Notes: generated by a model from the sequence alone, not told the origin. DNA of 64,000 nt from a virus (IMGVR_UViG_2703719286_000002:3723-67722), one strand, 5' to 3'. Numbered from the stretch's first letter, positions 11,364-46,604 are shown. Program-made: numbers and translations.

Positions 11364-11366
11364 GAG

Positions 11367-12943: not shown

Positions 12944-12960
12944 CGGCCCCTCCGTCCGCA

Positions 12961-25335: not shown

Positions 25336-25658
25336 TCCTCGGTTCCGGCCACGAGGTCGGCCTTGTGCTCGTCATCGCAGTCCACCTCGTAGGTCCAGGC
25401 CACCAGCCCGTGCCTCACGACGGTCTCGGGGTCGTGGCCGGCGCGTCGCTGCTCGGCCTCGTCCACCTCGGCCCTCTCGTCGGCCCGGAAGCCCGACAGG
25501 TCGACGCCGCTGATCGCCTTCATCTGGTCCGCCATACCTGCCAGAGCGACACGGCGGGCCTCCCTGATCTGCGAGCCGGTCAGCGGCCGGAACTGCATCC
25601 GCTGGTCCTGCTCCCCCGGAATGTCGCGCCATTCCGTAAGCTCACTGGCGCGTGGCAT
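25203..25658 (-). CDS. Tail assembly chaperone (G)
   Basis: Between tail tube and tape measure genes; carries the slippery heptamer. Confidence 0.8.
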   Translation of the reverse strand: MPRASELTEWRDIPGEQDQRMQFRPLTGSQIREARRVALAGMADQMKAISGVDLSGFRADERAEVDEAEQRRAGHDPETVVRHGLVAWTYEVDCDDEHKADLVAGTEEWAADCILEMSLRTETAKKASTGPSSPAVSPMSLAPPTSSDSPG

Positions 25659-25693
25659 GTGACGCCTCCTTTGCTTCGCTATCGCTCCTATCC

Positions 25694-26131
25694 CTACGTC
25701 ACCGTCCCCCAGGTCAGCCCCACCGTCCCGTAGGGGCGGAAGGCCGCCGTATAGGCGATGGGCCCGCCCACGCCCGAACTCAGGGCGTAGCTCTCCAGCA
25801 CCACCTGGCCCGTCAGCTTGGGCTTGGTGCTCGCCGTGCCGGCCGGGTAGAACTCCAGGGTGTAGCCGGCCGCCGTGCCGCCCTTGATGCCGCTCAGGAC
25901 CTTGTGCGACTCGGCGACGGCCGTGCCCAGGCCTGCCGGCCCGCTGATGCTGACGCTCTCCTCGCTGAGCCCGGAGATGTAGTTCTTCTTGCTGGCGCCG
26001 AAGGCCGACACCTCGGCCATGTCGACGCTGGAGGGGGTGTCAACCGAGTTGACGTAGGTGGAGATATCCCTGAGGTTTTCGCCGCTGTCGTCGATCTTGA
26101 AGACCGAGTCCTTGCCGTGAATCTTGCCCAT
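25694..26131 (-). CDS. Tail tube (major tail) protein
   Basis: 145 aa, directly upstream of the chaperones; SSVDMAEVSAFG...KNYISGL motif. Confidence 0.75.
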   Translation of the reverse strand: MGKIHGKDSVFKIDDSGENLRDISTYVNSVDTPSSVDMAEVSAFGASKKNYISGLSEESVSISGPAGLGTAVAESHKVLSGIKGGTAAGYTLEFYPAGTASTKPKLTGQVVLESYALSSGVGGPIAYTAAFRPYGTVGLTWGTVT

Positions 26132-26137
26132 CTACAT

Positions 26138-26162
26138 GGCTCCTGTCCCTCCGTCCATGGCT
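26138..26162 (-). repeat. 25-bp GGA-rich leader, copy 1
   Basis: Minus strand AGCCATGGACGGAGGGACAGGAGCC, identical to 35281-35305. Confidence 0.9.
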
Positions 26163-26187
26163 CGAACCCCCGGTCCGTGGGGGATGA

Positions 26188-26889
26188 CTAGAGGCGCCTG
26201 AAGGCCACCGCGTAGGTGCAGGTGCCGCCCGTCACCTTCGTTCTGATGTACTGCCTGACCGTCCCCGAAGCCTCGCCCCCCTCGGCGAAGGGTGCTGAGT
26301 CCGCCTCGCCGAAGGCTACGAGATCGTTGTAGGCGGCCTCTGCGACGGCCGTGCCGTGCTGCAGCGCCACCGTGGGCGAGCCCGCGGCGATGGCGAATAT
26401 CTGGACGTAGGCCCTCACGCCGGCGTTGCTCGGCGTCTCGCTGAGGACGCTGGCCGACTTGGTCCCGCTGCCCTCCGCCTTCTGGCGCGCCATCCTGATC
26501 GGGTCGGCGCCGGGATCGCTGAACTGATAGGCCGCGCCGATGGTGACGGCGCCGCCTATCGCGGAGCTCACGCCGTACTCGTTCACCAGCTCCGCCGAGC
26601 CGGCGTAGCCGTAGGCGCCGATGCCCGTCCCGAAGGCCGCCATGAAGTCGACCGCCGAGCCCTTGCGGGCCGACAGCACGGCGCGCGCGCCGTCGGCGTC
26701 GTCGGTGAAGAAGGCCTGGTGCCTGCAGACGCTCTCGTCTAGGCCTGAGACGTAGTTCTTCTTCGACTGCCCGAAGCTGCTGACCTCGGCCATGTCGACG
26801 CTGGAGCTCGGCTCCAGCGAGGACGAGTCGCCGGTCAGGTCGTAGCCGTCGATGTGGACGACCGTGTCTTTGCCGTGTACTTTGCCCAT
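26188..26889 (-). CDS. Tail tube paralog with C-terminal extension
   Basis: Shares MGK(V/I)HGKD and SSVDMAEVSxFGxSKKNYxSGL with 25694-26131. Confidence 0.7.
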   Translation of the reverse strand: MGKVHGKDTVVHIDGYDLTGDSSSLEPSSSVDMAEVSSFGQSKKNYVSGLDESVCRHQAFFTDDADGARAVLSARKGSAVDFMAAFGTGIGAYGYAGSAELVNEYGVSSAIGGAVTIGAAYQFSDPGADPIRMARQKAEGSGTKSASVLSETPSNAGVRAYVQIFAIAAGSPTVALQHGTAVAEAAYNDLVAFGEADSAPFAEGGEASGTVRQYIRTKVTGGTCTYAVAFRRL

Positions 26890-26901
26890 AGCACCTCCCC
26901 T

Positions 26902-27345
26902 CTATTCCTGCTCCTCTACCTCCACGTCCTCGGCGATCACGACGTCCATGCTCTCGGCGTGGAACACCACGTTGCCTATCTCGATCCCCTCCGGCTCCTC
27001 AGCGCCCGTCTCTATGAGGGTGTCGAAGATGCCGGAGGTGCCGCCCAGTGTCGGGTACTGCGCGATGCGGTCTAGGATGGCCTGCCGGTCGTCCCGGAGC
27101 TGATTGTGGACCTGCACTTCGTCCTTGTAGCGGGCGAAGAGCCAGATCTTCACGCGCCAGGCGTAGCGGTGGCCGCCGCGGAACTCCATCCGCAGGTGCT
27201 CGAAGCCGTCGTAGGCCAGGATGATGGCGCGCTTCACGCCCCTGCTGAGCAGCCTGTAGTCGGCCAGCGTGACCCGTTCCTCCCAGTCCTCGCCGATGGC
27301 CTCGATCTGGGTCTTGAGCGCCGCCTCGCAGGTCTCGTAGCTCAC
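26902..27345 (-). CDS. Tail terminator/neck protein
   Basis: Position before tube genes; AILDRIAQYPTLGG motif. Confidence 0.6.
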   Translation of the reverse strand: MSYETCEAALKTQIEAIGEDWEERVTLADYRLLSRGVKRAIILAYDGFEHLRMEFRGGHRYAWRVKIWLFARYKDEVQVHNQLRDDRQAILDRIAQYPTLGGTSGIFDTLIETGAEEPEGIEIGNVVFHAESMDVVIAEDVEVEEQE

Positions 27346-27527
27346 TCGGTCCCCGCCTGCCGCCGCTCCACCTCATCGCGCAACAGGGTGACGCTCTCCG
27401 GCGCCGTGATGCCCACGCGCACCTTGCCGTGGTCGACCTCCAGGATCTTGAAGACGATCCTGACGGGCGGCGTCCCGCCGCAGAGCGCGATGATCTCCTG
27501 CTCCACCTTCCGTGTCAGTACCAGCAT
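27342..27527 (-). CDS. csrA: Carbon storage regulator CsrA/RsmA homolog
   Basis: 61 aa; MLVLTRK N-terminus and KVRVGITAPESVTLLRDEV C-terminus, with the RNA-contacting Arg6 and Arg44-equivalent residues. Confidence 0.9.
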   Translation of the reverse strand: MLVLTRKVEQEIIALCGGTPPVRIVFKILEVDHGKVRVGITAPESVTLLRDEVERRQAGTE

Positions 27528-27528
27528 G

Positions 27529-28086
27529 TCAGTTGTCCGTTCTGTAGGTGTCCACCTCGGCCCGGCCTTCGCCCAGGTCCTGGCGGACGCCGAACCCGCG
27601 CGGGAAGCGCGGCGGCACGAGGTCCGTGTCGGCGGCGACCGTCCTCTTGCGGCTGCGGCTCCTGCCCGTCAGCACCAACCCTGTGCCGACGCGCTCCGTC
27701 CTCGCGCCGCCCAGGGCCTCGAAGGCGTCGGTCGCCATGAAGGCCGTGCCGTCCCGCCAGGCCGCCGAGAACTCCTTGAAGCGCTCGTTGGGCTCGCCGC
27801 CGCCGGCCACGGGCTGCGTCAGCTCGACCTTGCGGGTGGCGCCCACGGCGTTCAGGTCCTCCAGGTAGCCGACCACCTGCGTGTCGGTCTGCGCCGGGTT
27901 GTAGCCCTGCTCGGCGAGGATGGCCTGGAGCTGGTAGTAGGTCTGCGTCAGGAAGCGCTCGACCTGGGCGAGCGTCGGGTGGCTCGTCGTGTCGAAAATG
28001 CCGTCGCTGGTCAGGTGCCGGCAATAAGCCTCCACAGTCTGGATGCAGCTCGAGCCGGCCGTGAGCTCGTAGGCGTTGTAGGACAA
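27529..28086 (-). CDS. Head-tail adaptor/connector
   Basis: TTG start after GGAGG-rich leader; helical, QVERFL...LQAILAEQGY; neck position. Confidence 0.55.
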   Translation of the reverse strand: MSYNAYELTAGSSCIQTVEAYCRHLTSDGIFDTTSHPTLAQVERFLTQTYYQLQAILAEQGYNPAQTDTQVVGYLEDLNAVGATRKVELTQPVAGGGEPNERFKEFSAAWRDGTAFMATDAFEALGGARTERVGTGLVLTGRSRSRKRTVAADTDLVPPRFPRGFGVRQDLGEGRAEVDTYRTDN

Positions 28087-29303
28087 GCCTCCACCTCCCT
28101 CCTCAGTGTCTTCGGGGTGATGGTCTCGGCCAGCTCGTCCATGAATGGCCTCCAACGGTTCTCCACTAGGGTGTCCCAGTCGTATTGCATCGCGAAGTCG
28201 CGGGCCCGCTGCCGCCGGGCCGGGTCCCTCGCGCTGTCGTGTGCCCACTCCAGCAGGGTGGCGAGGGCATCGACGTCGGGTATCGCCTGCCAGGAACCGA
28301 GGGGGCTCATGTGCCGCGCCGCGACCGGGATGCGCCAGTTGGCGTCCTCGACGAGCTCGGCGCTGGCCGCGAAGTCGGTGGCGATGACGGGCGTTCCGCA
28401 GGCCTGCGCCTCCACCAGCGGGATCCCGAAGCCCTCGCCCATCGTCGGCAGCGCGAACACGTCGAAGGCGTTGTAGATCCTGATCATGGTCTCGCTGTCG
28501 AAACCCCGCTGCACCTTGTACGGGTCGGGGAAGCGCAGCCTCTCGGCCACCCCGGTTCTCCGGCCCCAGTCGAGGAGGTCCGGGCCGCCGTGCTGGCGGG
28601 TGGCCAGCGTGTGGACGTAGAGCTGGGCGTCGTCGTGGCGGTCGGAGAAGCCCTTGAACGCCTCGAAGAGCCACTGGAAGCCCTTGCGGTCGGGCCAGCC
28701 CTTGTTGGCGCCGACGCAGCCCACCAGGAAGCAGTCGCGGGGGAAGCCCAGCATCTCCTTGCAGTCGCCCCGCTCCTCGGGCAGAGGCCGGAATAGCTTG
28801 GTCTCCACGCCGTGCGGGATGTAGACGTTCTCGACGGCGTGGCGGTTCAGCTCAATGTGCGCGGAGCGGCTGTAGGTCAGCGGCATGTACGCCTGCCGGC
28901 AGCGGTCGAGGACCGGCGGCGGGACCGGCTCGTGGTCGATGGGCATCCAGGGCAGCCAGTAGTAGGAGCTGGCCCCGAACTTCTGGACGTCGAGCACCCA
29001 GAGGTCCATGAGGGTGATGAGGCAGTCGGCCCCGAAGTCGGCGGCGTGGTCGGTGATGGCGTCGTTCCCCCACACGTCGCCGAGCACGGGGTAGCAGGTC
29101 ACCTCGGCCTCGCCGCTGAACTCGTTGCCGATGCGCTGGCGCGTCATGGCGCCCTGCACGCCGTAGTAGGCGAACACGGCGATGTCGTCGACGCTGTCCA
29201 GGCGCAGGAGCCGGGGGAGCAGGCTGTTGCTCTGGATCCCGTACCCGGTGAGGCACCAGGGCGCGTTGGCCATGTAGAGTATGCGAAGTCCTTTGTTCGT
29301 CAT
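28011..29303 (-). CDS. Glycosyltransferase, GT-B/GT4-like
   Basis: LRILYMANAPW..TGYG N-terminus; FDVFALPTMGEGFGIPLVEAQACGTPVIAT nucleotide-sugar motif. Confidence 0.92.
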   Translation of the reverse strand: MTNKGLRILYMANAPWCLTGYGIQSNSLLPRLLRLDSVDDIAVFAYYGVQGAMTRQRIGNEFSGEAEVTCYPVLGDVWGNDAITDHAADFGADCLITLMDLWVLDVQKFGASSYYWLPWMPIDHEPVPPPVLDRCRQAYMPLTYSRSAHIELNRHAVENVYIPHGVETKLFRPLPEERGDCKEMLGFPRDCFLVGCVGANKGWPDRKGFQWLFEAFKGFSDRHDDAQLYVHTLATRQHGGPDLLDWGRRTGVAERLRFPDPYKVQRGFDSETMIRIYNAFDVFALPTMGEGFGIPLVEAQACGTPVIATDFAASAELVEDANWRIPVAARHMSPLGSWQAIPDVDALATLLEWAHDSARDPARRQRARDFAMQYDWDTLVENRWRPFMDELAETITPKTLRREVEACPTTPTSSRPARAASRLWRLIAGT

Positions 29304-29373
29304 CCTGCTCTCGCTCCTTCTGGCTCCAAGATTTCCCGCCGCCGGCCCGCCATCGGCATGACTATCTGTAGCA

Positions 29374-29619
29374 TCAGGACTCCTTTCCCTTCTCTCGCCA
29401 CTCACGCCATGCGGCAGCGTTCCTTACTCGTTCAGCGTGCCTGTCTATGGGCTCGGGAGAGGGTGGCTCTACAGGCCGGTGTCCCCACTTCAGCCGGTGC
29501 AGCCACCGCACACCGATGATTTCCCAACAGAGGTCGCAGGGTTGGCCACCCGAACTGAGCTTCCCATAGTCCGGCGGCAGCACTGGTGGGTCAGCCGGCG
29601 CTGTCAGCACTCTTCTCAT
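29374..29619 (-). CDS. Small hypothetical protein (CxxC)
   Basis: ORF within the cluster; PCDLCW. Confidence 0.45.
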   Translation of the reverse strand: MRRVLTAPADPPVLPPDYGKLSSGGQPCDLCWEIIGVRWLHRLKWGHRPVEPPSPEPIDRHAERVRNAAAWREWREKGKES

Positions 29620-29638
29620 ATCAGGACCCCTTTCCCTT

Positions 29639-29854
29639 TCAAGCCTTCTTCACCTCGAAGGTGTAGTGCTGGAGCACGGTGGCCAGGGGCTCGGCCTGGT
29701 CATCGCGTACCCACCGCTCTACCGTAACCCTCGGCAGCGCCCCCGCTCGGAACTTGAAGGTTAGCGTTCTCACATCCTCCGGGCGTAGCCCTAGTGCCTC
29801 GCAGATCTTTGTCTCCAGTTCACTGAGAGCGTTCATGCTTAATCGGGCTACCAT
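29639..29854 (-). CDS. Small hypothetical protein
   Basis: ORF within the cluster; GGAG RBS. Confidence 0.5.
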   Translation of the reverse strand: MVARLSMNALSELETKICEALGLRPEDVRTLTFKFRAGALPRVTVERWVRDDQAEPLATVLQHYTFEVKKA

Positions 29855-29913
29855 TCAGGACTCCTTTCCGGCGCCTGCCAGCACCGCTTCCAGCGTCACC
29901 TCGGCCCGTCCCT

Positions 29914-30870
29914 TCACACCACGACTCCTTTCTTCGCCACCACCTCCTGCAGCAGCGCGAGGAACCGCTTAGCGACCACCGACCAGCCCATCTCGGCCAG
30001 TGGCTGTGACCACGTGTCCAGGCCGCCCCTGTGTGCCTGCCGAAGGGTCTCAGCCAGCCGGGCATGGTCACGAGTGTCGCAGGTGTAGGCGTGCTCTCTC
30101 ACGTCCCTGAAGTGCCAGAGGTCAGGCACAACCACGGGCCGGTGGGCAGCGATGCCCAGGCGGACTCCGCCACTCACACCCGCAGCCCAATACCAAGAGG
30201 TGTGACCGAAGGCATAGACAGATGCGGACTCGGCCACGAGTCTCACCACTGCTTCATCCGAGAACCAATCATATATGATAGTGAGGCGCTCTGGAGGGAG
30301 AATCTGCTGGCAGGCGGCAGCAATATCTCGAGCGTCACCGTGCCGTGTCTCCGGCATGATGAAGCAGGCTTTGGCCTGGGGGATCAGTGCTACAGCACGA
30401 CAGATGTCTACGTGGCCCTTCCAGGCGTGAGGGATGCCTGCCGTGCCCACCACCAGCTCCTCCGGCCCTTCCGGCAGATCCTTGACCTCCAAGATGCCGT
30501 GGGGTATGTAGCGGAAGTTGGGGGCCTCGTGGACTACCTCTTTGTGATGTACTACCACGGCATCGAAAGCGTCTGTGAAGGCCGAACGGTTACTCCCGAT
30601 AGCCGTCTCTTGCCGGAGCAACACCTTCTTGACGGAGAAGTTGGGGAAGGCGTTCAGCCATTCCGGGTCCATGGTCATCGCTGCGGCGTAGTTAAAGACG
30701 GCCACATCCATATCCAGCTCCTCAAACCCCGAAGGGGAGTTCGAGGCAGCTACGAGCTGGACCTTCACTGGATAGCGGGAGAGCGCCTTGGCGAGATTGG
30801 ACGCATAGCCAGCGTTGCCGCAGCGCTCGTCCCAAGACGTGACTATCGCGACCTTCAGCAACTCTGGCAT
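29914..30870 (-). CDS. Glycosyltransferase, GT-B-like
   Basis: KVAIVTSWDERCGNAGYASNL; VVGTAGIPHAWKG; SGGVRLGIAAHRPVVV. Confidence 0.75.
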   Translation of the reverse strand: MPELLKVAIVTSWDERCGNAGYASNLAKALSRYPVKVQLVAASNSPSGFEELDMDVAVFNYAAAMTMDPEWLNAFPNFSVKKVLLRQETAIGSNRSAFTDAFDAVVVHHKEVVHEAPNFRYIPHGILEVKDLPEGPEELVVGTAGIPHAWKGHVDICRAVALIPQAKACFIMPETRHGDARDIAAACQQILPPERLTIIYDWFSDEAVVRLVAESASVYAFGHTSWYWAAGVSGGVRLGIAAHRPVVVPDLWHFRDVREHAYTCDTRDHARLAETLRQAHRGGLDTWSQPLAEMGWSVVAKRFLALLQEVVAKKGVVV

Positions 30871-31571
30871 ATCAGCATCGCTCCGTTGTAGACACTGTCG
30901 CGGTCGCCGAAGCAGCGGATGTGCTCACCTGCATAGCTGTAGTCGTAGGGCTCCACTGGCCTGAGCCCACAATCAGCCAACCAGCTTATGAGCTCCTCCA
31001 TGCTGGCCTGGGTGTAGAAGCGGGCCTGATGGCGCGTGGGGGGGCGCTCCTCGTTCACAAAGTCGAAGCTCAAGATGAGATAGCCCTTCGGCCTCAGCAC
31101 CCGCACCATCTGCACCAGCGCCGGCCGGTCGTCTGGGAGGTGCTCGAGCGTTGAGATGGACATCACGCAGTCGAAACTCTGGTCATGGTAAGGCAGGTCC
31201 TCAGCACGGCCATATCGCCAAGAGACACCTGTGAAACCCACAGAGCGCAAATAGGCCACCTTGGCTGCACCCTCGGAATTGACATCTAGGACTGTGACCC
31301 GGTGCCCAAGACAAGAGACGGCAGCGGGCAGCGTTGAACCGGCACCGCCCACATCCAGGATCTCACAAGGCGAAGCCAGCCGGTCGTGGCAGAAGTTCAG
31401 CACCCGACCGTACTCCCAGAAACGGTTGCCATCCACAGGAATCAGTTCGGGCTCGCCCAGCAGCAGTGCCGTCTCCTCCCAAAGATAGCGCATCTCCTTC
31501 GGATCATAGGGCTTGTTCCACATGGGAACCGGCAGCTCTAGCCCTTCAGGTTTGGCCAGCAGCTCTTTCAC
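30855..31571 (-). CDS. Class I SAM-dependent methyltransferase
   Basis: ILDVGGAGS motif I; EDLPYHDQSFDCVMSISTLEH; RVLRPKG. Confidence 0.9.
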   Translation of the reverse strand: MKELLAKPEGLELPVPMWNKPYDPKEMRYLWEETALLLGEPELIPVDGNRFWEYGRVLNFCHDRLASPCEILDVGGAGSTLPAAVSCLGHRVTVLDVNSEGAAKVAYLRSVGFTGVSWRYGRAEDLPYHDQSFDCVMSISTLEHLPDDRPALVQMVRVLRPKGYLILSFDFVNEERPPTRHQARFYTQASMEELISWLADCGLRPVEPYDYSYAGEHIRCFGDRDSVYNGAMLICQSC

Positions 31572-32938
31572 GGTGCGACTCCTTCCGCTACTTGATCACA
31601 CTCCATTTCTGACCTGCGATCCCGCGAGCCGAACATCTCGGCGAACTCGGCCAGCATCCAGCGACGAGCCTTCACCAGCTCTTCCCTCGGCATCTCTGGG
31701 TACTCAGCGATGAAGCCCTCTTCTGTCTCCTCTAGGCCGATGAGCCAGTATTTGTCCCAGTCCTGGGAGCGGATGGTGACGCCAAACCGCTCCGGGTTGT
31801 GCCAGACCGCGCAGCCGGGATAAGGGACAAAGGTGCTGAGAGTCACCTGATGAGGCCTGGTCTGGCTCAGGAAGCCCACGGTCTCCCGCACGGTCTCCCA
31901 GGTCTCGCCCGGGAACCCTACGATGATGTAGGCTCTCGGATTCAGGCCGGCCTCCTTGGCCCAGGCTATAGCCTTGGCGTGATTCTCAACAGTGTTGCGC
32001 TTGTTCATCTTGTCGAGCATCGTCTGGGAGCCGGTCTCGATGCCCAAACCGATCTCCACGCAGCCACAGTCAGCCATCATCTCGAACTCATCAAGGCTGA
32101 CATGGTCGGTGCGGGTATGGGCTCGCCACGTCAGGCCCCGATCCTTGAAGCCTCGGCAGAGTTCTGCAAAGCGGTCTTTGCGAAGGTTGCAGGTGTCGTC
32201 TTGGACGCGTAGATGAGTGATACCATACTGGGCCCGCAGGTGGTCGGCCTCCGCCAAGCAGTCCTCCACAGCTCGGAATCGCACCACCCGGCGCCACATG
32301 TCGAGGTCGCAGAAGTTGCAGTCAAAAGGGCAGCCCCGGCTCGTGAAGAAGCTGCAGCCGGGCCCTGCTCGATGCCCCTGGCTGGCCACGACCGATACAT
32401 CACCCAGCTCCGGCCAGAGGTCGTAAGCGGGCCAAGGGATGGTGCCTATATCGAGCAACGGACGAGGGGGGCTGCGCCGTACCCGGCCATCAAGACGCAA
32501 CGCTAGGCCCCGGATGTCCGCCAGGTCGCGGAGCTCTTGGTGAACACGCCAGCGATTCACAACAGCCGCCGCCGTTTCCTCACCTTCGCCCATCACTGCG
32601 ACATCGAAAGGTGATTCGGAAGTGAGGCACTGCTCAGGCATACTGGTCGGATGCGGGCCGCCAACGACCTTCAGCCCGGCATCCACCCTACGAGCCAAAC
32701 GCTCAGCCTCGGCATAGGTGCCGGAGTTAGCCGTCACCATCAGGACGTCGGCTGCTCCTGGGTCTCCTCTGTGATAGTTGCAGTCCCAAAACTCAGGCTC
32801 AATCCCGGCCCATTCCCGGAGCGCGGACGCGATGTGTAGGATGCCCTGCATCGGCATCATCCGAGGCACCCAAAGGTAGGGCGTGTAGGGATTGACCAAG
32901 AGAACCCTCACGACAGGGCGCCCTCCGCCAACTGCCAC
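31568..32938 (-). CDS. B12-binding radical SAM enzyme (class B-like)
   Basis: VVGGPHPT..P and VMGEGE cobalamin-domain motifs; SRGCPFDCNFC CxxxCxxC; GIETGSQTML. Confidence 0.92.
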   Translation of the reverse strand: MAVGGGRPVVRVLLVNPYTPYLWVPRMMPMQGILHIASALREWAGIEPEFWDCNYHRGDPGAADVLMVTANSGTYAEAERLARRVDAGLKVVGGPHPTSMPEQCLTSESPFDVAVMGEGEETAAAVVNRWRVHQELRDLADIRGLALRLDGRVRRSPPRPLLDIGTIPWPAYDLWPELGDVSVVASQGHRAGPGCSFFTSRGCPFDCNFCDLDMWRRVVRFRAVEDCLAEADHLRAQYGITHLRVQDDTCNLRKDRFAELCRGFKDRGLTWRAHTRTDHVSLDEFEMMADCGCVEIGLGIETGSQTMLDKMNKRNTVENHAKAIAWAKEAGLNPRAYIIVGFPGETWETVRETVGFLSQTRPHQVTLSTFVPYPGCAVWHNPERFGVTIRSQDWDKYWLIGLEETEEGFIAEYPEMPREELVKARRWMLAEFAEMFGSRDRRSEMECDQVAEGVAP

Positions 32939-33741
32939 AGGCGATCACCGGCCTGGCAGCAGTCCTCGGCCAGCGCCTCCAACGGCTTGTCGAAGCTGAA
33001 GCAACCGAGACGGCCAGAGTAGACGATCTCCAGACCAGCCAGATAGGCTTCGAGGATCGACAATGTGAAGCCCTCCGGCTTCCTGGGGAAGTGCAAGAAG
33101 CATTTGTGGTCGTAGAGTATCAGTGACCGCTTGTCTGACTGGAACATCCCCTGGAACGTCACCCACTCGCTGTTCTGAACCGCCTGGCCGATGCCGAAGA
33201 GGTTGAGGTGCCGCTCGTTCTGTGTCGCCCACCGCATGGCGATGTCGGGCCCCTTGAAGGGGTGAATCTCCCCCCACCACAGGCAGTCGTGGGGCCGCAC
33301 ATCGAGAGGGGGTGGGGTTACTTCAAGCAGCCCCCTATAGTCCATTGGGCAGGGAACGATCTCGACCTGTCCTTTGGGTTCCAGCGGCCACAGCCGCAGA
33401 AAGTGGTCCCTGTGAAAAGGGGAGCTCCAGCAGACCAGCCGTGCATCCTCCAAGAGCAGCTTGCGCCAGTGGTCCTGCAGCGGGTGCTCGTCCGCCCACC
33501 AGCCAAAGACGTAGACAGCGAAAGGCCTGCTGGTTATGAGCGTCAGTTCCTCCTGGGAGTAGCGCAGGAAGTTGCCTATGAGATACGCGTCGCACGCCGT
33601 CTCTTCAACCTGCCCTGGCGGACAGTAGACGACCTCGCTGGTGGCTGTGGAAGAACGATGCAGTATCTCTTCAGCAACCTCCTGCGCCCCTCCGGGCCGT
33701 TCAGAGAGCCTGAAGTCCTGAATGAAACCTATCCTTGGCAT
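32908..33741 (-). CDS. Glycosyltransferase-like protein
   Basis: PGGAQ N-terminal loop; WWGEIHPFKG; HFPRKPEGFTLSILEAYLAG. Confidence 0.7.
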   Translation of the reverse strand: MPRIGFIQDFRLSERPGGAQEVAEEILHRSSTATSEVVYCPPGQVEETACDAYLIGNFLRYSQEELTLITSRPFAVYVFGWWADEHPLQDHWRKLLLEDARLVCWSSPFHRDHFLRLWPLEPKGQVEIVPCPMDYRGLLEVTPPPLDVRPHDCLWWGEIHPFKGPDIAMRWATQNERHLNLFGIGQAVQNSEWVTFQGMFQSDKRSLILYDHKCFLHFPRKPEGFTLSILEAYLAGLEIVYSGRLGCFSFDKPLEALAEDCCQAGDRLWQLAEGALS

Positions 33742-34000
33742 TGCTGGGCCTCCGTGTTCTGGGCAGGCAGCTCGTCCCGCCACCCGCATGTGGTCAGCTC
33801 CTCACGGCACCCGTACTCGGGTCACGGTCGAGGAACACCACTGGCCGCCCGGCGCTGTCGACGAACATGATCCACGACAGATCGTCGGGTTCAACCCAGC
33901 CCTGCCAGTGCTTTCGCAGGGCTGGGTCCTGATACCGGCCTACTCGGATGTTTCACACGACTGCCTACCTCCTTCCTGCCTAAGATTCTTGCGCCCAGAC

Positions 34001-34345
34001 TCAGTACACGTACCGCCCGGTGAAGAAGCCGGCCACCGTTCCGGCGCCGGCGTTCGTCTTCAGCCCGAGCTTGTTGCCCGCCGTGAGCTGCTTCCCGGCG
34101 CCGAAGCTGACCGGGGCGGCCGGCTGCTCGTCCGCGCCGATGGCGAAGGTTCCGATCGTCCCGGAGGCCGCCGCCGTGCCGTCGGTCAGATGGACCAGCA
34201 GGCCGTTGGTCACGGTCTCCGTCTGCGCCAGGGTCGCGCTGTAGAGCAGCAGCGCCCGGCCGGAGCCGGGATCCCACGCCTCCGCCGGCGTCGTGGTCAG
34301 CGCCGTCGTGCCGAGGGGCTGCGTGTGCGTCGGCCTGTAAGCCAT
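34001..34345 (-). CDS. Beta-rich putative capsid decoration protein
   Basis: Gly/Ala/Thr-rich jelly-roll-like sequence downstream of the MCP. Confidence 0.45.
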   Translation of the reverse strand: MAYRPTHTQPLGTTALTTTPAEAWDPGSGRALLLYSATLAQTETVTNGLLVHLTDGTAAASGTIGTFAIGADEQPAAPVSFGAGKQLTAGNKLGLKTNAGAGTVAGFFTGRYVY

Positions 34346-34357
34346 GCCTGCCGCCCC

Positions 34358-34762
34358 CTACGACGCTGCCGTCACGGTCGGCGTCCCGCCATTGACGACC
34401 GACAGAACGAAGGCCGAGCCATTGCAGACCCAGCCCAACTGGATCGTGGCGCCGCTGAAGCCCACGCGGACCTCGCCGGCGTTGGCCGTCGCCAGGTTGG
34501 ACGTACCCAGCGCCGTCCCGAAGCTCGCGCCGGGCGCCGGTAGCCGCAGCTTCGTGGCCGCGGCATCGAACGTATCGCCCGTCGCCGGCCCGACGCGGTT
34601 GGCGCCGGTGCGGACCAGGGCAGCGTCGGCTCCCAACGTCATGGTGCCCGCCGTGGCGGTCACGTTGCCGGTAGCCACCACGGCACCGCCGATGGTCGCG
34701 GCACCGCCGATGGTCAGCGGCCCCTTGATGTAGAATCCTCGCCTTACTTTCTCAAGTCCCAT
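34358..34762 (-). CDS. Putative head fibre/decoration protein
   Basis: GPLTIGGAATIGGAVVATGNVTAT beta-repeat-like stretch. Confidence 0.45.
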   Translation of the reverse strand: MGLEKVRRGFYIKGPLTIGGAATIGGAVVATGNVTATAGTMTLGADAALVRTGANRVGPATGDTFDAAATKLRLPAPGASFGTALGTSNLATANAGEVRVGFSGATIQLGWVCNGSAFVLSVVNGGTPTVTAAS

Positions 34763-34807
34763 GTCATCCTCCTCGCCTCATCACCTCCTTGTTAGGCTAA
34801 GCCAGCG

Positions 34808-35278
34808 CTACTTCGCTGAGCGCTGGACGGTCTTCACCCCTTCCGTGGTCATCTCCAACCGCGTGGGGTGAGGGTCTGTGTTGGTGGAGGCGCCCTCCGG
34901 GTCGATGTCGGGGGCCTCCTCACCCTTGTCGATCTGTTCGGGCGTCGGCTGAGCCGCCTTCTTCCTTGACCGCTTCACCTGCGGCCTGTCGGTCTCAGCC
35001 GCCCCCTCGTCCGCGTGCTTCCGCTGTAGGTGCTGCTGCGGGTAAGGCGAGGTCACATCGTTCCCGATGAACTGCTCGCCGCAGTGCGGGCAGCGCCACA
35101 GCGGCGTCCCCTTTTCCACCGGCTGGCAGTAGACGCGCTGGAGCGCGTTCTGGCCGAGGAGCTTCGCGTCATTCCTGAGGCCGCGCAGCTCAAAGACCTG
35201 CCCGCGCTCCAGCGTCTTGCCGCCATACTCCCTGAGGTTCGGGTCCACGGCGTAGACGTTCTTGCCCATCCTTGTCAC
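34808..35278 (-). CDS. Hypothetical protein with C2H2 zinc finger
   Basis: CPHCGEQF...QHLQRKH; first gene after the MCP. Confidence 0.55.
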   Translation of the reverse strand: MTRMGKNVYAVDPNLREYGGKTLERGQVFELRGLRNDAKLLGQNALQRVYCQPVEKGTPLWRCPHCGEQFIGNDVTSPYPQQHLQRKHADEGAAETDRPQVKRSRKKAAQPTPEQIDKGEEAPDIDPEGASTNTDPHPTRLEMTTEGVKTVQRSAK

Positions 35279-35280
35279 AC

Positions 35281-35305
35281 GGCTCCTGTCCCTCCGTCCA
35301 TGGCT
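35281..35305 (-). repeat. 25-bp GGA-rich leader, copy 2
   Basis: Exact match to 26138-26162. Confidence 0.9.
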
Positions 35306-35332
35306 TCGCTCTCCCTCCTTGGAGATGCGTCC

Positions 35333-36337
35333 CTAGTCCACGCAGTCCTCGAAGAAGGCGCCCGCGTAGGGCTCCGTCGCCTTCTGGGCGATGTAGCTGT
35401 GCGCCTCGATCCAGTCCTTCTTCGGGCGCTCCTCGCGGCCCTTGCGGATGAACTGGACCCCGCCGCCCGTCATCGGCCTCCAGAAGAAGGTGTAGCCGGC
35501 GCTCGGCTCCAGCAGGCTCGGCCTCGGGGGCACGTAGAGCAGCAGCGCGTCGTCGTCGACCACGCGCGACAGCGTCATCGTCGCGGCGCCCTCGTCCGTG
35601 CTGCGGTAGATGGCCCGGCTCACCACTACCTCGTCGAGCTCCAGGATCTGCGCCAGGAGCTGGAGGCTGATGAGGGCCGGGTTGCTGGCCGCCGCCCCGT
35701 ACTTGATCCGGTCGATGAAGTCGGGGTGGTGCTTCAGCCGCCGCCACCCGATGGCGCCCAGGATCAGTTTGTTCGGCTGGCGCCCGCAGGCCAGCTCGAC
35801 GGTGTCGCGCTCGATCTCGATGTCCCCGATCGGATCGCTCGCGCCGTAGTCGCTCCATTTCGCGCCGCCGTGGCTCCCGTCCGTCACGTCGACGTCGGTG
35901 CCGCCCGTGCCGCCGGTCCACACGCTGGTGGCCATGAACGCGGCCGCGAACATGCGCTCGCGCCGGATCATCTGGATCTGCGTCACCAGGGCCATGGCGT
36001 CCTGGTCGAGGTTGAACACCGCGTCCGCGTTGCCCCGCAGCTCGTCCGGGATGTCCATGCCGATCGCCTGGTTGACGCAGTAGAAGGAGTTGTCGGCGTC
36101 CACGTCATAGCCCGTGGTGGCGGCCACCGTGCCGGGGGCGCGCACCATCAGCGCGCCGGGGTCGGCGAAGAAGTCGCCGCGCTGGTACTTCACGAACTTG
36201 TCGCTCTGCTTGTCCACCGGGACGAGGGGGAACACCCCGTCGGCGATGAAGTTGGTTAGCTTGTTCATGTGGGCGATGCTGAGCATGGTCAGCAAGGCGT
36301 CGACATGCACATCGCCCACGTCTGGCTGGTTCGCCAT
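35333..36337 (-). CDS. Major capsid protein (capsid-E-like HK97 fold)
   Basis: 334 aa after protease and cement genes; VHVDALLT..S.AH.N...FIAD.VFP.VPVDKQS, PNKLILG motifs. Confidence 0.85.
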   Translation of the reverse strand: MANQPDVGDVHVDALLTMLSIAHMNKLTNFIADGVFPLVPVDKQSDKFVKYQRGDFFADPGALMVRAPGTVAATTGYDVDADNSFYCVNQAIGMDIPDELRGNADAVFNLDQDAMALVTQIQMIRRERMFAAAFMATSVWTGGTGGTDVDVTDGSHGGAKWSDYGASDPIGDIEIERDTVELACGRQPNKLILGAIGWRRLKHHPDFIDRIKYGAAASNPALISLQLLAQILELDEVVVSRAIYRSTDEGAATMTLSRVVDDDALLLYVPPRPSLLEPSAGYTFFWRPMTGGGVQFIRKGREERPKKDWIEAHSYIAQKATEPYAGAFFEDCVD

Positions 36338-36397
36338 CCGCTGTTGCCTCTCTGTCTATCCCCGTCCGTGGCTTCACCAGCCCTCCATGACCGTTAA

Positions 36398-36790
36398 CTA
36401 TGCCTTGACGATCCAGGCCGGCTGCACCAGCAGCGTGAAGTTGGCGGCCGAACCGGAAGCGGCGTCCAGGGCCACGCCGACGGCCCAGGCCGTGCCCGAC
36501 GTGATCGGCGTGCCACGGCCCCCGGTGGTCGGCTGGATGAGCTCGCCCTCGTCCACGGCCGCGCCCGCCTCCATCTTCACGACGGAGCCGACGATGGCGA
36601 TCTCCGCTGCCCGTGCGGTGCCCGATGGCTTGTTCAGCAGGATGCCGATCGGTACGGTCGTTAGGACCGTACCGCTGCCCAGGACCGTCGCCTCGCCGTC
36701 GCTGGCGCAGTAGACGGCCCGGAACTGGCTGCTGCTCAGGTCGCCGCTGGCCGGGATCGTGATGCTGTTGATCTTCTTGTCAACGGTCAA
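36398..36790 (-). CDS. Capsid cement/decoration protein (DUF2190-like)
   Basis: PIGILLNKP...AEIAIVG.VVKMEAGAAVDEGELI...GRG pattern. Confidence 0.7.
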   Translation of the reverse strand: MTVDKKINSITIPASGDLSSSQFRAVYCASDGEATVLGSGTVLTTVPIGILLNKPSGTARAAEIAIVGSVVKMEAGAAVDEGELIQPTTGGRGTPITSGTAWAVGVALDAASGSAANFTLLVQPAWIVKA

Positions 36791-36837
36791 TTCCTGTTCC
36801 TCCTCCGCGCCGGCTTACCCGGGCGGTCGCACCCCGC

Positions 36838-38586
36838 CTAGTTGGGGAGGGGTGTCCTGCGGCCGGTGTGTTCCCGGTCGCGCTTGTCCCACAGCACGGG
36901 GTTCTGGGCGGCCACCTGGCTGATGGCCTCCGCCTTTTCGAGATCCGGCTGCTCGGCCATCCTCTTCTCGGCGAGCTTCCTGATCTCCTCGTCCGCCGTC
37001 TCGGGCGCGCCGTCGCCGCCACCCACGCCGGCCTCCTTGAAGAGCCCGGCCTCGTGGGCCTGCTTGGCGTGCGAGCGGGCGATGTAGACGTAGCGCGTGA
37101 ACTCCTCCGAGCCCTCGCCCTTGGCCTCGGCGATTGTCTCGAGGAGCTGGACGTGGACCTGGATGGCCCCGATCATCGGCCTGGCGCCGTCGCTCGCGTC
37201 GTCGCGCCCCAGCACGATGTCGGTGAAGCGCCGGTGCCTCGCGCCGTCCTCAAGGCTCTTGACGCGGTTCTCGGCGGCCTCGTGGGCCAGGTTGGCCAGG
37301 TCGGTCGCCTGCTTGTGTCCCGCGACCTCCGCCTTGAGCTCGCCGGTGGCCGCCTCCACGGCCTTCTTGCTCTCGTCTGCAACCAGCTCCCGAAGCTGGT
37401 CCTCTGTCATCTGGTTGGGCAAGATGCCACCCTCCTTCTTTCTGTCGGTCGGGGCGACGTGGCCCCGCCTCAACTCGATCCACCTGTCTGCCTTCCCTTC
37501 CTCCGCCAGCGTCACCTCCCACATGCCGCCCTCCCTGGCGACCAGCGGCTTCAGCGCGTCGTCCTTAAAGAAGGGGCGCGTAGTGAGGGCGCCCCCTATC
37601 AGGACGTTCTTGAAGGTCTCGTGTGACGCCGGGTCTTCCCATTCGTCGTACCACTCCGGGGAGAAGTAGCGGAACCGCTCAGCCTCGAGCAGCTCCTCGC
37701 CGCGGTCGGTCCAACTGACCTTCGCCCAGAGGCCACCCTCGCCGCCCGGCCCGCCGATCACTACTTCCTCGTAGTAGCCCAGCGCGCCCGACAGCTTGCT
37801 CTCGTGCTCGGCGTCGACCGGGATGTGCTCCTGATAGACACCGCGCTCGAAGTTGCGGGCGAAGTCCTCGAGCACTTCGTCCGTGATCTTGATCTCGCCG
37901 TAGCTCGGGTGGTCCCAGGAGCCGGGTGCCGGGATGACCTGAATCCACTCCGGCACCTCCCCAGCCTGCAGCGGCATGTCGTTGAGGAACCGGAACTCCC
38001 CGGTCCTCCCGATAAGGGCCACGAGATCACCTCCTCCGTCTGCGATGAATTGCGCCGCGGCCCTCTTGGCCTTCTCACGGGCAGCCGTCTCGCCCTCCTC
38101 GTCACTGTCCTCCGTGCCGATCTTGACCCACTGCTCCACCGGGTAGTGCCAGCCCGCCTCCCGCACGGCGTTCCAGCCCGCCTCCACCGCTTGCCAGTGG
38201 TCGACTCCGGGAACCGTCGCCGCCACCTTGTAGGCCTCGAGGAAGATGGCCTGCGCCTCGGGCGGGAGCCCGGCCCTGATATCGATGTCCATGTCGTCCA
38301 CCGTCTCCCAGTCCTTCGGGCACGGCGGCCGATACGGCTCCACCTCGCAGAGCGCGGCCAGCTTCTCCTCGGCCATCTCGCCCTCGATGGCCTTCCGCCA
38401 CTTGCCGTCCTTTTGCTTGCGGAAGCCGGCGATCTTCACGGCCGTCCACGCCACCCTGAAGGCCTTCTCGTCGGTGGCCCCGCTGTCCAGGGCCTTGTTG
38501 GCGACCCTCAGGAAGATGCGCTGCGCCGGCGCCGGGAGCGCCTCACGCACATCGTCCGGTAGCTCTTCGATGTTCTTGTAGGGCAA
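36838..38586 (-). CDS. ChaB-ChaB-Mu gpI-like prohead protease/scaffold fusion
   Basis: Two ChaB-like repeats (LP..AQ.IF....N/K...A...AW.AV); IPVDAEH, GLWAKVSWTDRG and FRYFSPEW protease motifs; coiled-coil scaffold tail. Confidence 0.8.
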   Translation of the reverse strand: MPYKNIEELPDDVREALPAPAQRIFLRVANKALDSGATDEKAFRVAWTAVKIAGFRKQKDGKWRKAIEGEMAEEKLAALCEVEPYRPPCPKDWETVDDMDIDIRAGLPPEAQAIFLEAYKVAATVPGVDHWQAVEAGWNAVREAGWHYPVEQWVKIGTEDSDEEGETAAREKAKRAAAQFIADGGGDLVALIGRTGEFRFLNDMPLQAGEVPEWIQVIPAPGSWDHPSYGEIKITDEVLEDFARNFERGVYQEHIPVDAEHESKLSGALGYYEEVVIGGPGGEGGLWAKVSWTDRGEELLEAERFRYFSPEWYDEWEDPASHETFKNVLIGGALTTRPFFKDDALKPLVAREGGMWEVTLAEEGKADRWIELRRGHVAPTDRKKEGGILPNQMTEDQLRELVADESKKAVEAATGELKAEVAGHKQATDLANLAHEAAENRVKSLEDGARHRRFTDIVLGRDDASDGARPMIGAIQVHVQLLETIAEAKGEGSEEFTRYVYIARSHAKQAHEAGLFKEAGVGGGDGAPETADEEIRKLAEKRMAEQPDLEKAEAISQVAAQNPVLWDKRDREHTGRRTPLPN

Positions 38587-39885: not shown

Positions 39886-40698
39886 TCAGTTCGCCATCTG
39901 ACAGAACTGCACCCGTATCCGGTCCCCAGCCATCCGCTTCTGGCACTCAGCGAGCAGCCGCTCGGGGCTGTAGCCATGGGCGGCCAGCTTAGGATTCGCG
40001 TGGAACTCGCCAGCCAGGTAGTCGACCCTGTCCAACAAGGCCATGCCTCTCGTCAGGACCTCGTGCTCCGCCCCCTCACAGTCGATCTTCAGCAGGCGCA
40101 CCCTCCCCGTACCCGCTATGTCGAAGACATCGGCAAGGGTAACGGCCTTCACCGTCGTCCCGCCGTTCAGATCCTCAATCCATCCCGACGGGCCGCCACT
40201 GTTCCCCTTTGAGACGGCGAGCACCACGCTGGTCGCCCCGCCCGCCAACGCGAAATCATACGGGGTCACATTCGTGATGCCGTTGGCCTTCAGGTTCCGT
40301 ACCAGGTGCCGATAGTTCGTTGGTTGCGGCTCGAAGGCGAAGATGCGGGTTCGAGGGTGGCGCTTCGCCAGGAATATGCTCACTACACCGACATGGGCGC
40401 CGATGTCGAGGATTGTGTCGTCAGGGCGTAGATCGGCGAAGCCGTCGCCATAGGTTCGGAGGCATTCGCGGAGTACGATCTTGGCAACGCCGCCATTGGG
40501 GTCGTCCTCGATATCGAGCAGTTCGCCATCCAGGTACAGGCCGGGGCCTTCCTTGACCGCCCACGTTTGCTGAGCTTCGGCACGGCAGTCTCTCTCAAGG
40601 CAGAAGATATGAGGGACTCCGTCTACATATAGGGCCGTCGGCGACCAACGGTGCTGACCCTCATCCGTACATCTCCGACCGTCTCGCTGCTCGGTCAT
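39886..40698 (-). CDS. FkbM-family methyltransferase
   Basis: LDIGAHVG, FAFEPQPTNY, LLKIDCEGAE. Confidence 0.9.
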   Translation of the reverse strand: MTEQRDGRRCTDEGQHRWSPTALYVDGVPHIFCLERDCRAEAQQTWAVKEGPGLYLDGELLDIEDDPNGGVAKIVLRECLRTYGDGFADLRPDDTILDIGAHVGVVSIFLAKRHPRTRIFAFEPQPTNYRHLVRNLKANGITNVTPYDFALAGGATSVVLAVSKGNSGGPSGWIEDLNGGTTVKAVTLADVFDIAGTGRVRLLKIDCEGAEHEVLTRGMALLDRVDYLAGEFHANPKLAAHGYSPERLLAECQKRMAGDRIRVQFCQMAN

Positions 40699-40717
40699 CT
40701 CGCCTCCTTGCCCGTCC

Positions 40718-42364
40718 TCATCCGCACACCCTCGCGTCTGGGAACAGTATACCGAATCCCTCGCAGGCCAGGTCCCGCAGCCGGTCCAGGTCCGGGCACC
40801 CCGGCTCCGGCGTCACCGTCGGCGTGGGCGTCGGCCTGGGCCCGTCCGGGCACTCGACCGTGAACGGCGCCCGCGGAGACCAGCGATAGCCGGAGACGTA
40901 AGCGCCGACGACCACCTGCCGCGCCTGGCCGGCCGCCCCACGGTCCCAGAGGAACCGCGTCCCGTCCACCGCCACTGAGCCGCGCCACAAAGCCTGTTCG
41001 CCCGCCTCGTCCGTGATGAAGACGCCGAACCACGATTCGTTCGGCGAGTTGTCGCGCCAGGAGACGATGACGTTGACCTCGTCGGCGGGGCACTCCGTTC
41101 TCACGCTCACATCGGACGGCGGGCCGCCTACTTCGGGCGTTGGCGTCGGCGTAGGCTGCGGGGAGCCGTCGCAGGGAACAGCCAGGGCCAGGGGCTCGGC
41201 GAAGTCGTCTCTGTCGCCCCTGAAGCCGCAAGGCCCGTCCTGCGCACCAGCCCTAGCCTTCAACCCGGCCTGTACCGCCCTGACGCCCGCACCGTCCACT
41301 GGCTTGCCGTGCTCCTCGATATAGAGCGCCGCTAGGCCGGCGACGTGGGGTGACGCCATGCTCGTACCGCTCTTGACCGCGAACGCCCCGCCCAGGAATG
41401 TCGAGCGGATATCTACGCCCGGAGCCGCCAGGTCAATGTCCTCGCCCCAGTTGCTGAAGCCCGCCAGTGTATCGTCCGGGCCGTAGCGCTCCGTGGGCGG
41501 GCCCCTGCCGCCCGGCTCGCCGTCACTGTCGGCCAGCGCGGACACGGTGAGCACCTCGGCGTAGGTGGCGGGTACGGTGTTGTCGGCGTCCCTGTTGCTG
41601 TTGCCCGCCGCCACGACCACGACGATCCCGGCGTCGACGACGTTGCAGATGGCGCGGTGCATCGCGCCCGCTGTCGCGCAGGTCGTGCGGTCGATCACCG
41701 ATGCTCCCAGGCTCATGTTGACGACATCGATGCGATCCCGGTTGACGATGGCCCAGTCGAGGCCGGCGATGATCCAGCTCAGGTTGCCCGAGCCGCTGTC
41801 GCTCAGCACCTTGATGGCCACCAGGTCGGCGCGGGGCGCGACGCCCACGACGCCGCCGCCGTCGTCCCGCGCGGCGATGATGCCGGCGACGTGCGTGCCG
41901 TGGCCGTAGCCGTCGTTCCAGCTTCCCTTGCCCGTGAAGTCGCGGCTGAGGGCGGCGAGTATGTCGAGGTCGCTATGCTGCGCGATGCCGGTGTCGAGAA
42001 CGGCGACGGTGACGCCTTCGCCCCGGCCGGTGCCCCAGTGTCGCTCGGCCTCGACGCGGTCCACGCCCGTGGGCAGCGTGTCGAAGGCCTCGAACTCGAT
42101 GTCGGGCTCGACGCTCACGCCGGCCTGCGCGGCCAGAGCCTCCGCCTCCGCGTCCGTGAGGTCGGCGGCGAAGCCCGAAACGGCGTGCGAGTACATGAAC
42201 GTCGGCTCCACGTCCGCAGCAAGCGCGGTGAACGCCGGGTCGTCGGTGAGCACGATGTACCCCGCACGCTCCGGCCCGGCCCAGGGCTCCGTGATAACTA
42301 GAGTTCCCCCCAGGACTCCAGCCAGCACCAGCGGCAATGCCAGAATACGAAGTATCGCTCGCAT
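40718..42364 (-). CDS. Secreted S8 subtilisin-like peptidase with I9-like prodomain
   Basis: Signal peptide; catalytic triad VLDTG, HGTHVAG, GTSMASPHVAG; PTPTP linkers and a beta-sandwich C-terminal domain. Confidence 0.95.
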   Translation of the reverse strand: MRAILRILALPLVLAGVLGGTLVITEPWAGPERAGYIVLTDDPAFTALAADVEPTFMYSHAVSGFAADLTDAEAEALAAQAGVSVEPDIEFEAFDTLPTGVDRVEAERHWGTGRGEGVTVAVLDTGIAQHSDLDILAALSRDFTGKGSWNDGYGHGTHVAGIIAARDDGGGVVGVAPRADLVAIKVLSDSGSGNLSWIIAGLDWAIVNRDRIDVVNMSLGASVIDRTTCATAGAMHRAICNVVDAGIVVVVAAGNSNRDADNTVPATYAEVLTVSALADSDGEPGGRGPPTERYGPDDTLAGFSNWGEDIDLAAPGVDIRSTFLGGAFAVKSGTSMASPHVAGLAALYIEEHGKPVDGAGVRAVQAGLKARAGAQDGPCGFRGDRDDFAEPLALAVPCDGSPQPTPTPTPEVGGPPSDVSVRTECPADEVNVIVSWRDNSPNESWFGVFITDEAGEQALWRGSVAVDGTRFLWDRGAAGQARQVVVGAYVSGYRWSPRAPFTVECPDGPRPTPTPTVTPEPGCPDLDRLRDLACEGFGILFPDARVCG

Positions 42365-45808: not shown

Positions 45809-46348
45809 TCAGATGCCCGCCCCGGCTGCGTCCGCGAGGCCGAACCCGCCCGCGAGGTGCTTCTGCAGCGCCGCCCGGAGCAGGCCGACGACCTCGCCGC
45901 CCTTCTCGTCCACGGCCCGCTGGGCCATGTGGACGCCCTTCGTGCCGGGGTGCTTCACGACGCGGGCGAAGGCCAGGGCGCCCTTGCCCTTCCGCGTCCC
46001 CTGCGGCCCACGGCCCAGACCGGCCGCCGACCGGCCGCCGATGGGCCAGGCCAGCACCTTCTTCGTCCGGGGCCGTATTTCGTGGGGCCGCGTGCCCTCC
46101 TCGACGAACCGGGCATACGCCTTGTCAGTCCCCACGATGACCGCCCAGCCGCCGTTGCGCGTCTGGGTCGCCCAGGAGGCCCGCAGGTGGCCGGTTCTCA
46201 CGGGCGTCCGCCGCTTGACCTCCCGCTCGATGCGCGTCCCGGCGCGCCGGAGGCTGCGCTTGGCCGCGGCCTGGAGGCCGTGCTTGCTGAGGCGGCGCAC
46301 CAAGTCATCGACGCCCTCGACGCGGATCGAGAATCCGGGCTCGGGCAC
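45809..46348 (-). CDS. HK97 gp10-like tail completion protein
   Basis: TPVRTGHLRASW, AYARFVEEGT, VKHPGTKG motifs. Confidence 0.85.
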   Translation of the reverse strand: MPEPGFSIRVEGVDDLVRRLSKHGLQAAAKRSLRRAGTRIEREVKRRTPVRTGHLRASWATQTRNGGWAVIVGTDKAYARFVEEGTRPHEIRPRTKKVLAWPIGGRSAAGLGRGPQGTRKGKGALAFARVVKHPGTKGVHMAQRAVDEKGGEVVGLLRAALQKHLAGGFGLADAAGAGI

Positions 46349-46596: not shown

Positions 46597-46604
46597 GACG
46601 CAAG

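Follow-up and report, generated by a model that had tools for sequence, protein, structure and literature searches.

The RNA targets of the bacterial regulator CsrA share a SELEX consensus in which ACA and GGA are invariant and the GGA lies mostly in a hexaloop on a short stem (PMC7652899). One CsrA dimer bridges two sites placed 10-63 nt apart, with an optimum of ~18 nt; glgC combines a high-affinity hairpin site with a weaker site over the Shine-Dalgarno (SD) sequence, and in hag the controlled product is flagellin, the major filament subunit (PMC7652899). CsrA genes of phages are already published: a catalogue of 2020 lists them, as genes of unknown function, in 30 of 2517 phage genomes (Sobrero and Valverde 2020, PMC7366521), and for one of them an effect on plaque size was demonstrated in 2025 (PMC11879866). 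We found no publication in which a phage CsrA is given a target. Here, we describe a 64-kb stretch (hereafter, the window) of the 67.7-kb IMG/VR provirus record IMGVR_UViG_2703719286_000002, an uncultured prophage with a G+C content of ~67%, which carries a csrA gene among its neck genes and three related, GGA-rich leaders before virion genes. The best single reading of the three leaders, which we put forward tentatively, is that a CsrA-family protein, most likely the one encoded by the phage itself, uses them as operators.

A second class of described elements is relevant to the same leaders. Cluster K mycobacteriophages and Cluster EF Microbacterium phages carry over-conserved, SD-embedded motifs of unknown function, the start-associated sequences (SAS) and extended SAS (ESAS). 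The SAS is an asymmetric motif of 13 nt that takes the SD position, 3-7 nt 5' of the start codon, and is found in 10-19 copies at non-structural genes, and RNA hairpins were considered unlikely by the authors in the case of the ESAS repeats (PMC3203893, PMC7302621).

Leaders upstream of the capsid and tail genes

The three leaders and the genes next to them are located as follows in the window.

36338..36397, minus strand: leader of the major capsid protein (MCP) gene, a diverged copy with a weak hairpin, the box and a GGA over the start codon
35333..36337, minus strand: MCP gene, 334 aa (PHROG 1005, E 6e-74)
35270..35332, minus strand: post-MCP leader, with a hairpin, the 25-nt repeat and a third CANGGANG site at the start codon
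34808..35269, minus strand: post-MCP gene, 153 aa, with an alternative start GTG at 35278 and homologues in the relatives G001-G003 and L017
26188..26889, minus strand: major tail protein 1 (MTP1) gene, 233 aa (PHROG 9522 major tail protein, E 4e-17)
26132..26187, minus strand: MTP2 leader, with the hairpin, the box, the 25-nt repeat and an ATG-TAG abutting the start codon
25694..26131, minus strand: major tail protein 2 (MTP2) gene, 145 aa, a paralogue of MTP1 (PHROG 10528, E 5e-25)

The earlier note on this DNA had reported an identical 25-nt leader with four GGA, the last one at the SD, before a tail tube gene and before the first gene after the MCP. The repeat was confirmed as exact at 26138-26162 (-) and 35281-35305 (-); no further copy was found in the window at up to 3 mismatches, with 0 expected (100 shuffles), and an exact 23-mer scan of IMG/VR gave no match. 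The last of its four GGA lies within AGGAG. The "tail tube gene" is more precisely the second of two major-tail-protein paralogues, MTP2. The SD of the repeat is placed 8 nt 5' of the MTP2 ATG and, at the post-MCP gene, either 13 nt 5' of the ATG or 4 nt 5' of the in-frame GTG at 35278. Both copies are then followed by ATGGGCAAGA, and a two-codon start-stop lies directly 3' of each, ATG-TAG at 26132-26137 and GTG-TGA at 35275-35280. These differ at 3 of 6 nt yet keep the same reading, and the relative L127 also has ATG-TAG (its positions 2432-2437); use as a mini open reading frame (ORF) is doubtful since the SD is only 2 nt away.

The stop-to-start regions of the MCP, post-MCP and MTP2 genes were aligned with the MCP leader of the relative L017 and the MTP2 leader of L127. 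The alignment revealed that the 25-nt repeat is the core of a ~65-nt leader family with three copies in the window, each of them containing four to six GGA. Every leader has a 5-bp hairpin, 45-49 nt before the start codon, with AUGGAG, AAGGAG or ACGGACC in the loop. About 9 nt after the hairpin comes an invariant GCCA-GGA-GG core, readable as CC[ANGGAN]GG, in which only two positions vary, these being exactly both N of CANGGANG. A purine run with the SD follows, and then (G/A)GAUGG. The CC-ANGGAN-GG box lies 19-20 nt downstream of the loop GGA, with the SD GGA 13 nt further. The sequence GCCAYGGACGG occurs exactly at three places in the window, all three within these leaders, and the MCP leader, previously noted as related to the repeat, is hence a true diverged copy of it.

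In the MTP2 leader, the hairpin CCCCC[ACGGACC]GGGGG is found at 26167-26183 (-9.4 kcal/mol, identical in L127) and the box AGCCATGGACGG at 26151-26162. The post-MCP hairpin, CGC-A-TCTCC[AAGGAG]GGAGA-GCG at 35307-35329, is stable alone (-13.2 kcal/mol, z -2.9). The MCP leader contains the hairpin CGGTC[ATGGAG]GGCTG at 36378-36393 and the box AGCCACGGACGG at 36362-36373; its SD is without GGA, and a GGA overlaps the start codon instead (CGGATG).

The three stems are unrelated in sequence (CGGUC/GGCUG, UCUCC/GGAGA and CCCCC/GGGGG), yet all of them pair. Overall, 92% of the alignment cells were paired, three of the five pairs had changed on both sides, and the observed covariation score was reached by 1 in 500 shuffles; all slid registers of the hairpin alignment scored worse. 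On the minus strand, 15 of the 1391 GGAs fall in an NNGGAN(N) loop on a 5-bp stem, three of the 15 being those of the leaders. Five pairs of CANGGANG at 10-63 nt were counted in the window, and four of the five, with a spacing of 19 nt, belong to the MCP and post-MCP leaders. The earlier note proposed to fold the RNA to see whether GGA sits in loops; the 25-nt block itself proved to be unstructured, and it is the extended leader that places a GGA in a hairpin loop. GGA-loop hairpins as a class were not enriched in non-coding sequence (16 of 188 vs 9.4% of the sequence being non-coding).

A covariance model of the leaders (R1) recovered only its five training sequences from the window and 25 related loci. 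Rfam gave no match in the window at the gathering threshold and none in 25500-37000 at E 1, and this search of the window also yielded no candidate for a sponge RNA of the CsrB/RsmZ type. The promoter and terminator scan detected no sigma-70-like promoter or intrinsic terminator at any leader copy. The lysis-gene leader (12948-12957), included earlier among the GGA-rich leaders, was dropped: the match is real, and the site is without hairpin or box and was missed by the covariance model. Its 10-mer, GGACGGAGGG, occurs 3 times vs 0.69 expected, which is chance level because the three occurrences include the two repeat copies and leave only one extra.

Judged by layout, the leaders resemble two-site CsrA operators such as those of E. 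coli glgC, P. protegens hcnA and B. subtilis hag, and at the level of sequence they agree with every one of the features given above for CsrA sites (PMC7652899). As in these, a loop GGA is combined with a second site at or near the SD, with CANGGANG as the core. The intersite distance of 19-20 nt falls within the 10-63 nt range and near the ~18-nt optimum. The likeness to hag extends to the gene behind the leader, which in both cases encodes a major polymerising structural subunit. Unlike the bacterial operators, the leaders precede phage virion genes and csrA is in the same late operon; they have 4-6 GGA each and exist as three paralogous copies apparently produced by duplication; and no sponge RNA or FliW-like antagonist is visible here.

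The csrA gene and its occurrence in relatives

The neck segment around csrA comprises the following genes.

27529..28086, minus strand: neck gene 5' of csrA, 185 aa from TTG 28086 (or 168 aa from GTG 28035), role assigned by position
27342..27527, minus strand: csrA, 61 aa (Pfam PF02599, PHROG 9500; aligned with RsmE 2JPP and CsrA 1Y00)
26902..27345, minus strand: tail terminator-like gene, 147 aa, with a predicted fold matching lambda gpU

The 61-aa ORF is a CsrA-family gene. Its product matched Pfam CsrA (PF02599) with 47.4 bits (cut-off 27) over residues 1-56, i.e., the whole domain, and PHROG 9500, "CsrA-like regulator". Over its full length it could be aligned with RsmE (2JPP) and with CsrA of E. 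coli (1Y00), keeping MLVLTRK in strand 1 and having LLRDE in strand 5 where VHREE is found, so that the R44 equivalent is retained and H43 is replaced by L. M1, L2, R6, the R44 equivalent and E52 are invariant in all six phage CsrA copies compared, and L4 is retained in the clade of the window. The L127 protein is 90% identical and divergence from it is highest at third codon positions, which indicates that csrA is under purifying selection.

The upstream ORF terminates with a TGA 1 nt 5' of the csrA ATG, and at the other end of csrA its TGA and the GTG of the following gene overlap as GTGA; the same layout is found in L127. From these junctions, translation of csrA is predicted to be coupled to that of the neck gene before it and of the tail terminator gene after it. 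Both the family assignment and the coupling had been proposed in the earlier note, and both held. Its labels for the neighbours fared unequally. The model of the 147-aa product matched lambda gpU (E 7e-6, TM score 0.54-0.60, mean predicted local distance difference test [pLDDT] of the model 61), with many other tail terminators also matching, and the predicted fold supports a tail terminator-like role. The "head-tail adaptor" was left unconfirmed, as the 185-aa neck product had no Pfam or PHROG match and its structure model (pLDDT 36) was unusable. A FliW-like partner next to csrA was considered and rejected, the 147-aa neighbour folding like the lambda gpU tail terminator and not like FliW.

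As with other phage CsrA homologues (PHROG 9500; PTXU04 gp28, PMC11879866), this is a small CsrA-family gene in a tailed phage. Those homologues are usually assumed to manipulate the host, whereas here there are candidate cis targets on the phage's own mRNAs; a further difference is the location within the neck module, coupled between a neck gene and the tail terminator. In isolated phages, no tblastn match for CsrA was obtained at E 1e-3, and MCP identity was <40%.

We have then compared the relatives found in IMG/VR. Three of them, G001, G002 and G003, with MCP identities of 70, 54 and 52%, respectively, all carry csrA. In G001 its neck position and coupling are as in the window; in G002 and G003 it is at the end of the late operon, csrA thus occupying two different genome positions among the relatives. 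Closer relatives were obtained from the protein database. L127, whose gene order is as in the window, is the only relative in which csrA and the leader were both observed. Its MTP2 leader agrees at 50 of 56 nt and keeps all four GGA and the ATG-TAG, with three substitutions within the 25-mer. L017 (MCP 86% identical) also has the MCP leader, in whose stem a G-U pair has become C-G by a double change. The two closest contigs, from ERR10503089 (MCP 91% and CsrA 76% identical), have gene gaps of 54 nt and 59 nt, a spacing which suggests that both leaders are present there.

The MCP is separated from the next gene by 63 nt in the window vs 19 nt with a plain SD in L017; hence, the post-MCP leader is a recent insertion of ~45 nt. 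Its 25-mer is identical at 25 of 25 positions to the MTP2 copy of its own genome and differs from that of L127. No csrA lies near the locus in more distant relatives (27 genome loci, 78 metagenome loci recovered by the tail protein and three long contigs with ~60% MCP identity), and no relative with the leader and without csrA was seen among those examined. In the genomes compared, csrA is older than the leader, and the leader is confined to a small csrA-carrying clade, with no independent event of co-occurrence. The operator appears to have spread by duplication inside this clade, with csrA already in place. Near the start of G003 (L013, 295-330), two adjacent hairpins with AAGGA loops lie ~50-60 nt before the portal gene, at the contig edge.

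Candidate readers of the leaders

From the two-site layout of the leaders, we infer that a CsrA binds them, that it would be the one encoded by the phage, and that the effect would be repressive. In such a mechanism, CsrA would be made late, through translation coupled to the neck genes. A dimer would bridge the hairpin-loop GGA and the CC-ANGGAN-GG box ~19 nt downstream, i.e., two CANGGANG sites per leader, and might also reach the GGAs over the SD or the start codon. Bound CsrA would block ribosome entry and so cap, or time, the synthesis of MCP, the post-MCP product and MTP2, which would parallel, for virion assembly, the CsrA-flagellin homeostasis. A viral Csr circuit that is self-contained and limits the synthesis of the capsid, post-capsid and second tail-tube proteins, whose regulon grows by operator copying, is possible and is suggested with more reserve. 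A circuit of this kind had been postulated before: the CsrA homologue with RNA-binding residues and the two-site leader architecture are in its favour, and co-occurrence, GGA clustering and the lysis leader did not bear it out.

Several observations weigh against CsrA operators. The 25-nt block itself is without structure (folding z 0 to +1), and the MCP-copy hairpin is weak and lies outside the minimum-energy fold. The core CANGGANG is common in the coding sequence of the purine-rich minus strand (57 copies), and clusters of at least 4 GGA are genome-wide at the level expected from composition (10 observed vs 8.2 +/- 3). The divergence of the MTP1-MTP2 intergenic region from L127 (10.7%, vs 15.6% at third codon/synonymous positions) does not make it better conserved. 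In G001-G003 the leader is absent, the MCP, post-MCP and MTP genes having a plain AAGGAGG or overlapping stop/start codons. The expected co-occurrence of leader and csrA thus gave no signal, and a conserved role of csrA in the lineage cannot depend on these leaders. Since the three leader copies are paralogous, they amount to one or two independent observations only. Finally, GGGATAGGAGCC recurs at gene starts of the mycobacteriophage TM4, with ten copies that share one strand, and a search of this phage at E 1 gave no CsrA homologue; repeats that are over-conserved and embedded in the SD can therefore occur where CsrA is lacking.

The TM4 case leads to the strongest alternative, a doubtful one which we nevertheless consider nearly as likely as a CsrA operator: a CsrA-independent, SAS-like translation-start element acting in cis. 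The most abundant virion proteins would profit from it through ribosome recruitment or positioning, or through a late mRNA that is stabilised or segmented, and it would have been copied before further genes. The repeat resembles the SAS in being asymmetric, at the SD position and accompanied by an upstream element (compare GGGACAGGAGCC with the Cluster K SAS consensus GGGATAGGAGCCC). Of the 13 consensus positions it shares 11, and it is placed 6 nt 5' of the MTP2 ATG and 11 nt 5' of the post-MCP ATG; its 3' half, GGGACAGGAGCC, is one position off the first 12 nt of the consensus. The exact GGGAYAGGAGC is found 3 times in the window, always in the structural module; tolerating one mismatch gives 4 occurrences vs 4.95 expected. 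Directly after the MTP2 stop, at 25684-25694, stands GGGATAGGAGC, which equals the first 11 nt of the Cluster K consensus and is the sole exact extra match in the window. This third exact GGGATAGGAGC fits a start element, as do the ten TM4 motifs in the absence of csrA, the analogous motif of Cluster EF phages, the high output of the MCP and tail-tube genes served, and the csrA-carrying relatives which manage without the leader. Such an element would leave unexplained the retention of the A-N-GGA loop on wholly changing stems and the second CC-ANGGAN-GG box at a fixed 19-20 nt. Unlike the SAS, the leader has a covarying RNA hairpin presenting GGA and 2-3 copies on virion genes; the SAS number of at least 10 copies at non-structural genes was not found in the window, and the copies compare with 10-19 at non-structural genes for the SAS. 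Beyond AGGAG, the likeness comes down to 6-7 positions, for which convergence or chance is possible.

If the leaders are real operators, their reader might also be a host CsrA or another host RNA-binding protein, with the phage CsrA acting elsewhere, either on host mRNAs or in the role of a decoy or competitor. We regard this as improbable. It agrees with csrA predating the leaders in the lineage and taking two genome positions in relatives, and the published views favour host manipulation by phage CsrA (PMC11879866; PMC7366521). Against it, no sponge RNA candidate was found, Rfam being without a match.

It is likewise improbable, and slightly more so, that the repeat has no function of its own and was left behind by illegitimate recombination or gene conversion that recently took place between leaders. 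The post-MCP copy would suit this account as a ~45-nt insertion relative to L017 that is 25/25 identical to the MTP2 copy of the same genome and unlike the L127 version, as would ATGGGCAAGA following both copies. The stems, however, covary across copies while the loops and the box are kept; the MTP2 leader is kept in L127, and the MCP leader is kept in L017 with a compensatory change. Moreover, next to the perfect 25-mer, 3 of 6 nt differ and an indel is present, a pattern which argues for constraint on the 25-nt block. A DNA-level element, i.e., a late promoter or a regulator-binding site, is suggested by a repeated intergenic sequence before late genes and is very improbable, as no sigma-70-like promoter or intrinsic terminator lies at any copy, the repeat is strand-specific and abuts the SD inside a tightly packed co-directional operon, and the stem covariation argues for RNA.

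Wider gene content and significance

From ~11.9 kb onward, the genes of the window are on the minus strand, from early genes through head, tail and lysis genes. The early genes are followed by those for the terminase, a Mu-type portal, an S8 subtilase, an FkbM methyltransferase and a Mu-F-like protein, and then by a ChaB-protease/scaffold fusion, a scaffold-like gene and the MCP. Small genes come next, with a glycosyltransferase/methyltransferase/radical-SAM cluster after them; the neck genes, the two major tail proteins, chaperone-like genes, the tape measure, tail genes and lysis genes complete the order. The post-MCP product had no match in family searches. Relatives of the MCP are scattered across many phyla at up to 43% identity, and the sole named relative of a 481-aa flanking protein (65% identity) is from an uncultured metagenome-assembled genome labelled Elusimicrobia.

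A sugar-modification cassette is placed between the head and neck genes (28011-33741), likewise in L045, L046/L047, L048 and G001-G003. Its constant part across the lineage is a GT4 glycosyltransferase with a 277-aa protein, and its variable part includes methyltransferase, B12-radical SAM, epimerase, DegT aminotransferase, acetyltransferase and GT2 genes. The cassette suggests glycosylated virions. The subtilase (Peptidase_S8 with an I9 propeptide) and FkbM methyltransferase genes, between the portal and Mu-F-like genes at 39886-42364, are both missing in G001, and L046 has FkbM only. The prohead protease/scaffold gene (Mu-like_Pro, 36838-38586) has an N-terminal ChaB domain in two copies. 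About 30 tandem GGT-NN pentamers occupy 46591-46748 on the minus strand, between the genes at 45809-46348 and 46746-47411, upstream of the terminase genes. A tRNA-Arg(CCT) gene (7976-8051) is flanked by three tyrosine recombinase genes (6711-7850, 8537-9442 and 11367-11927), along with a D5-type primase-helicase gene (1992-4268); a second integrated element may adjoin the prophage in 1-8051 and 8537-11927.

The prophage gives a phage csrA candidate targets: one protein of 61 aa faces three RNAs of ~65 nt in which the GGA positions are defined. Should the binding fail, the element would join the unexplained start-associated repeats of the SAS type. Should binding hold, phage CsrA would regulate the output of virion proteins, instead of or besides manipulating the host, and the operator inserted recently would illustrate the expansion of a post-transcriptional regulon.

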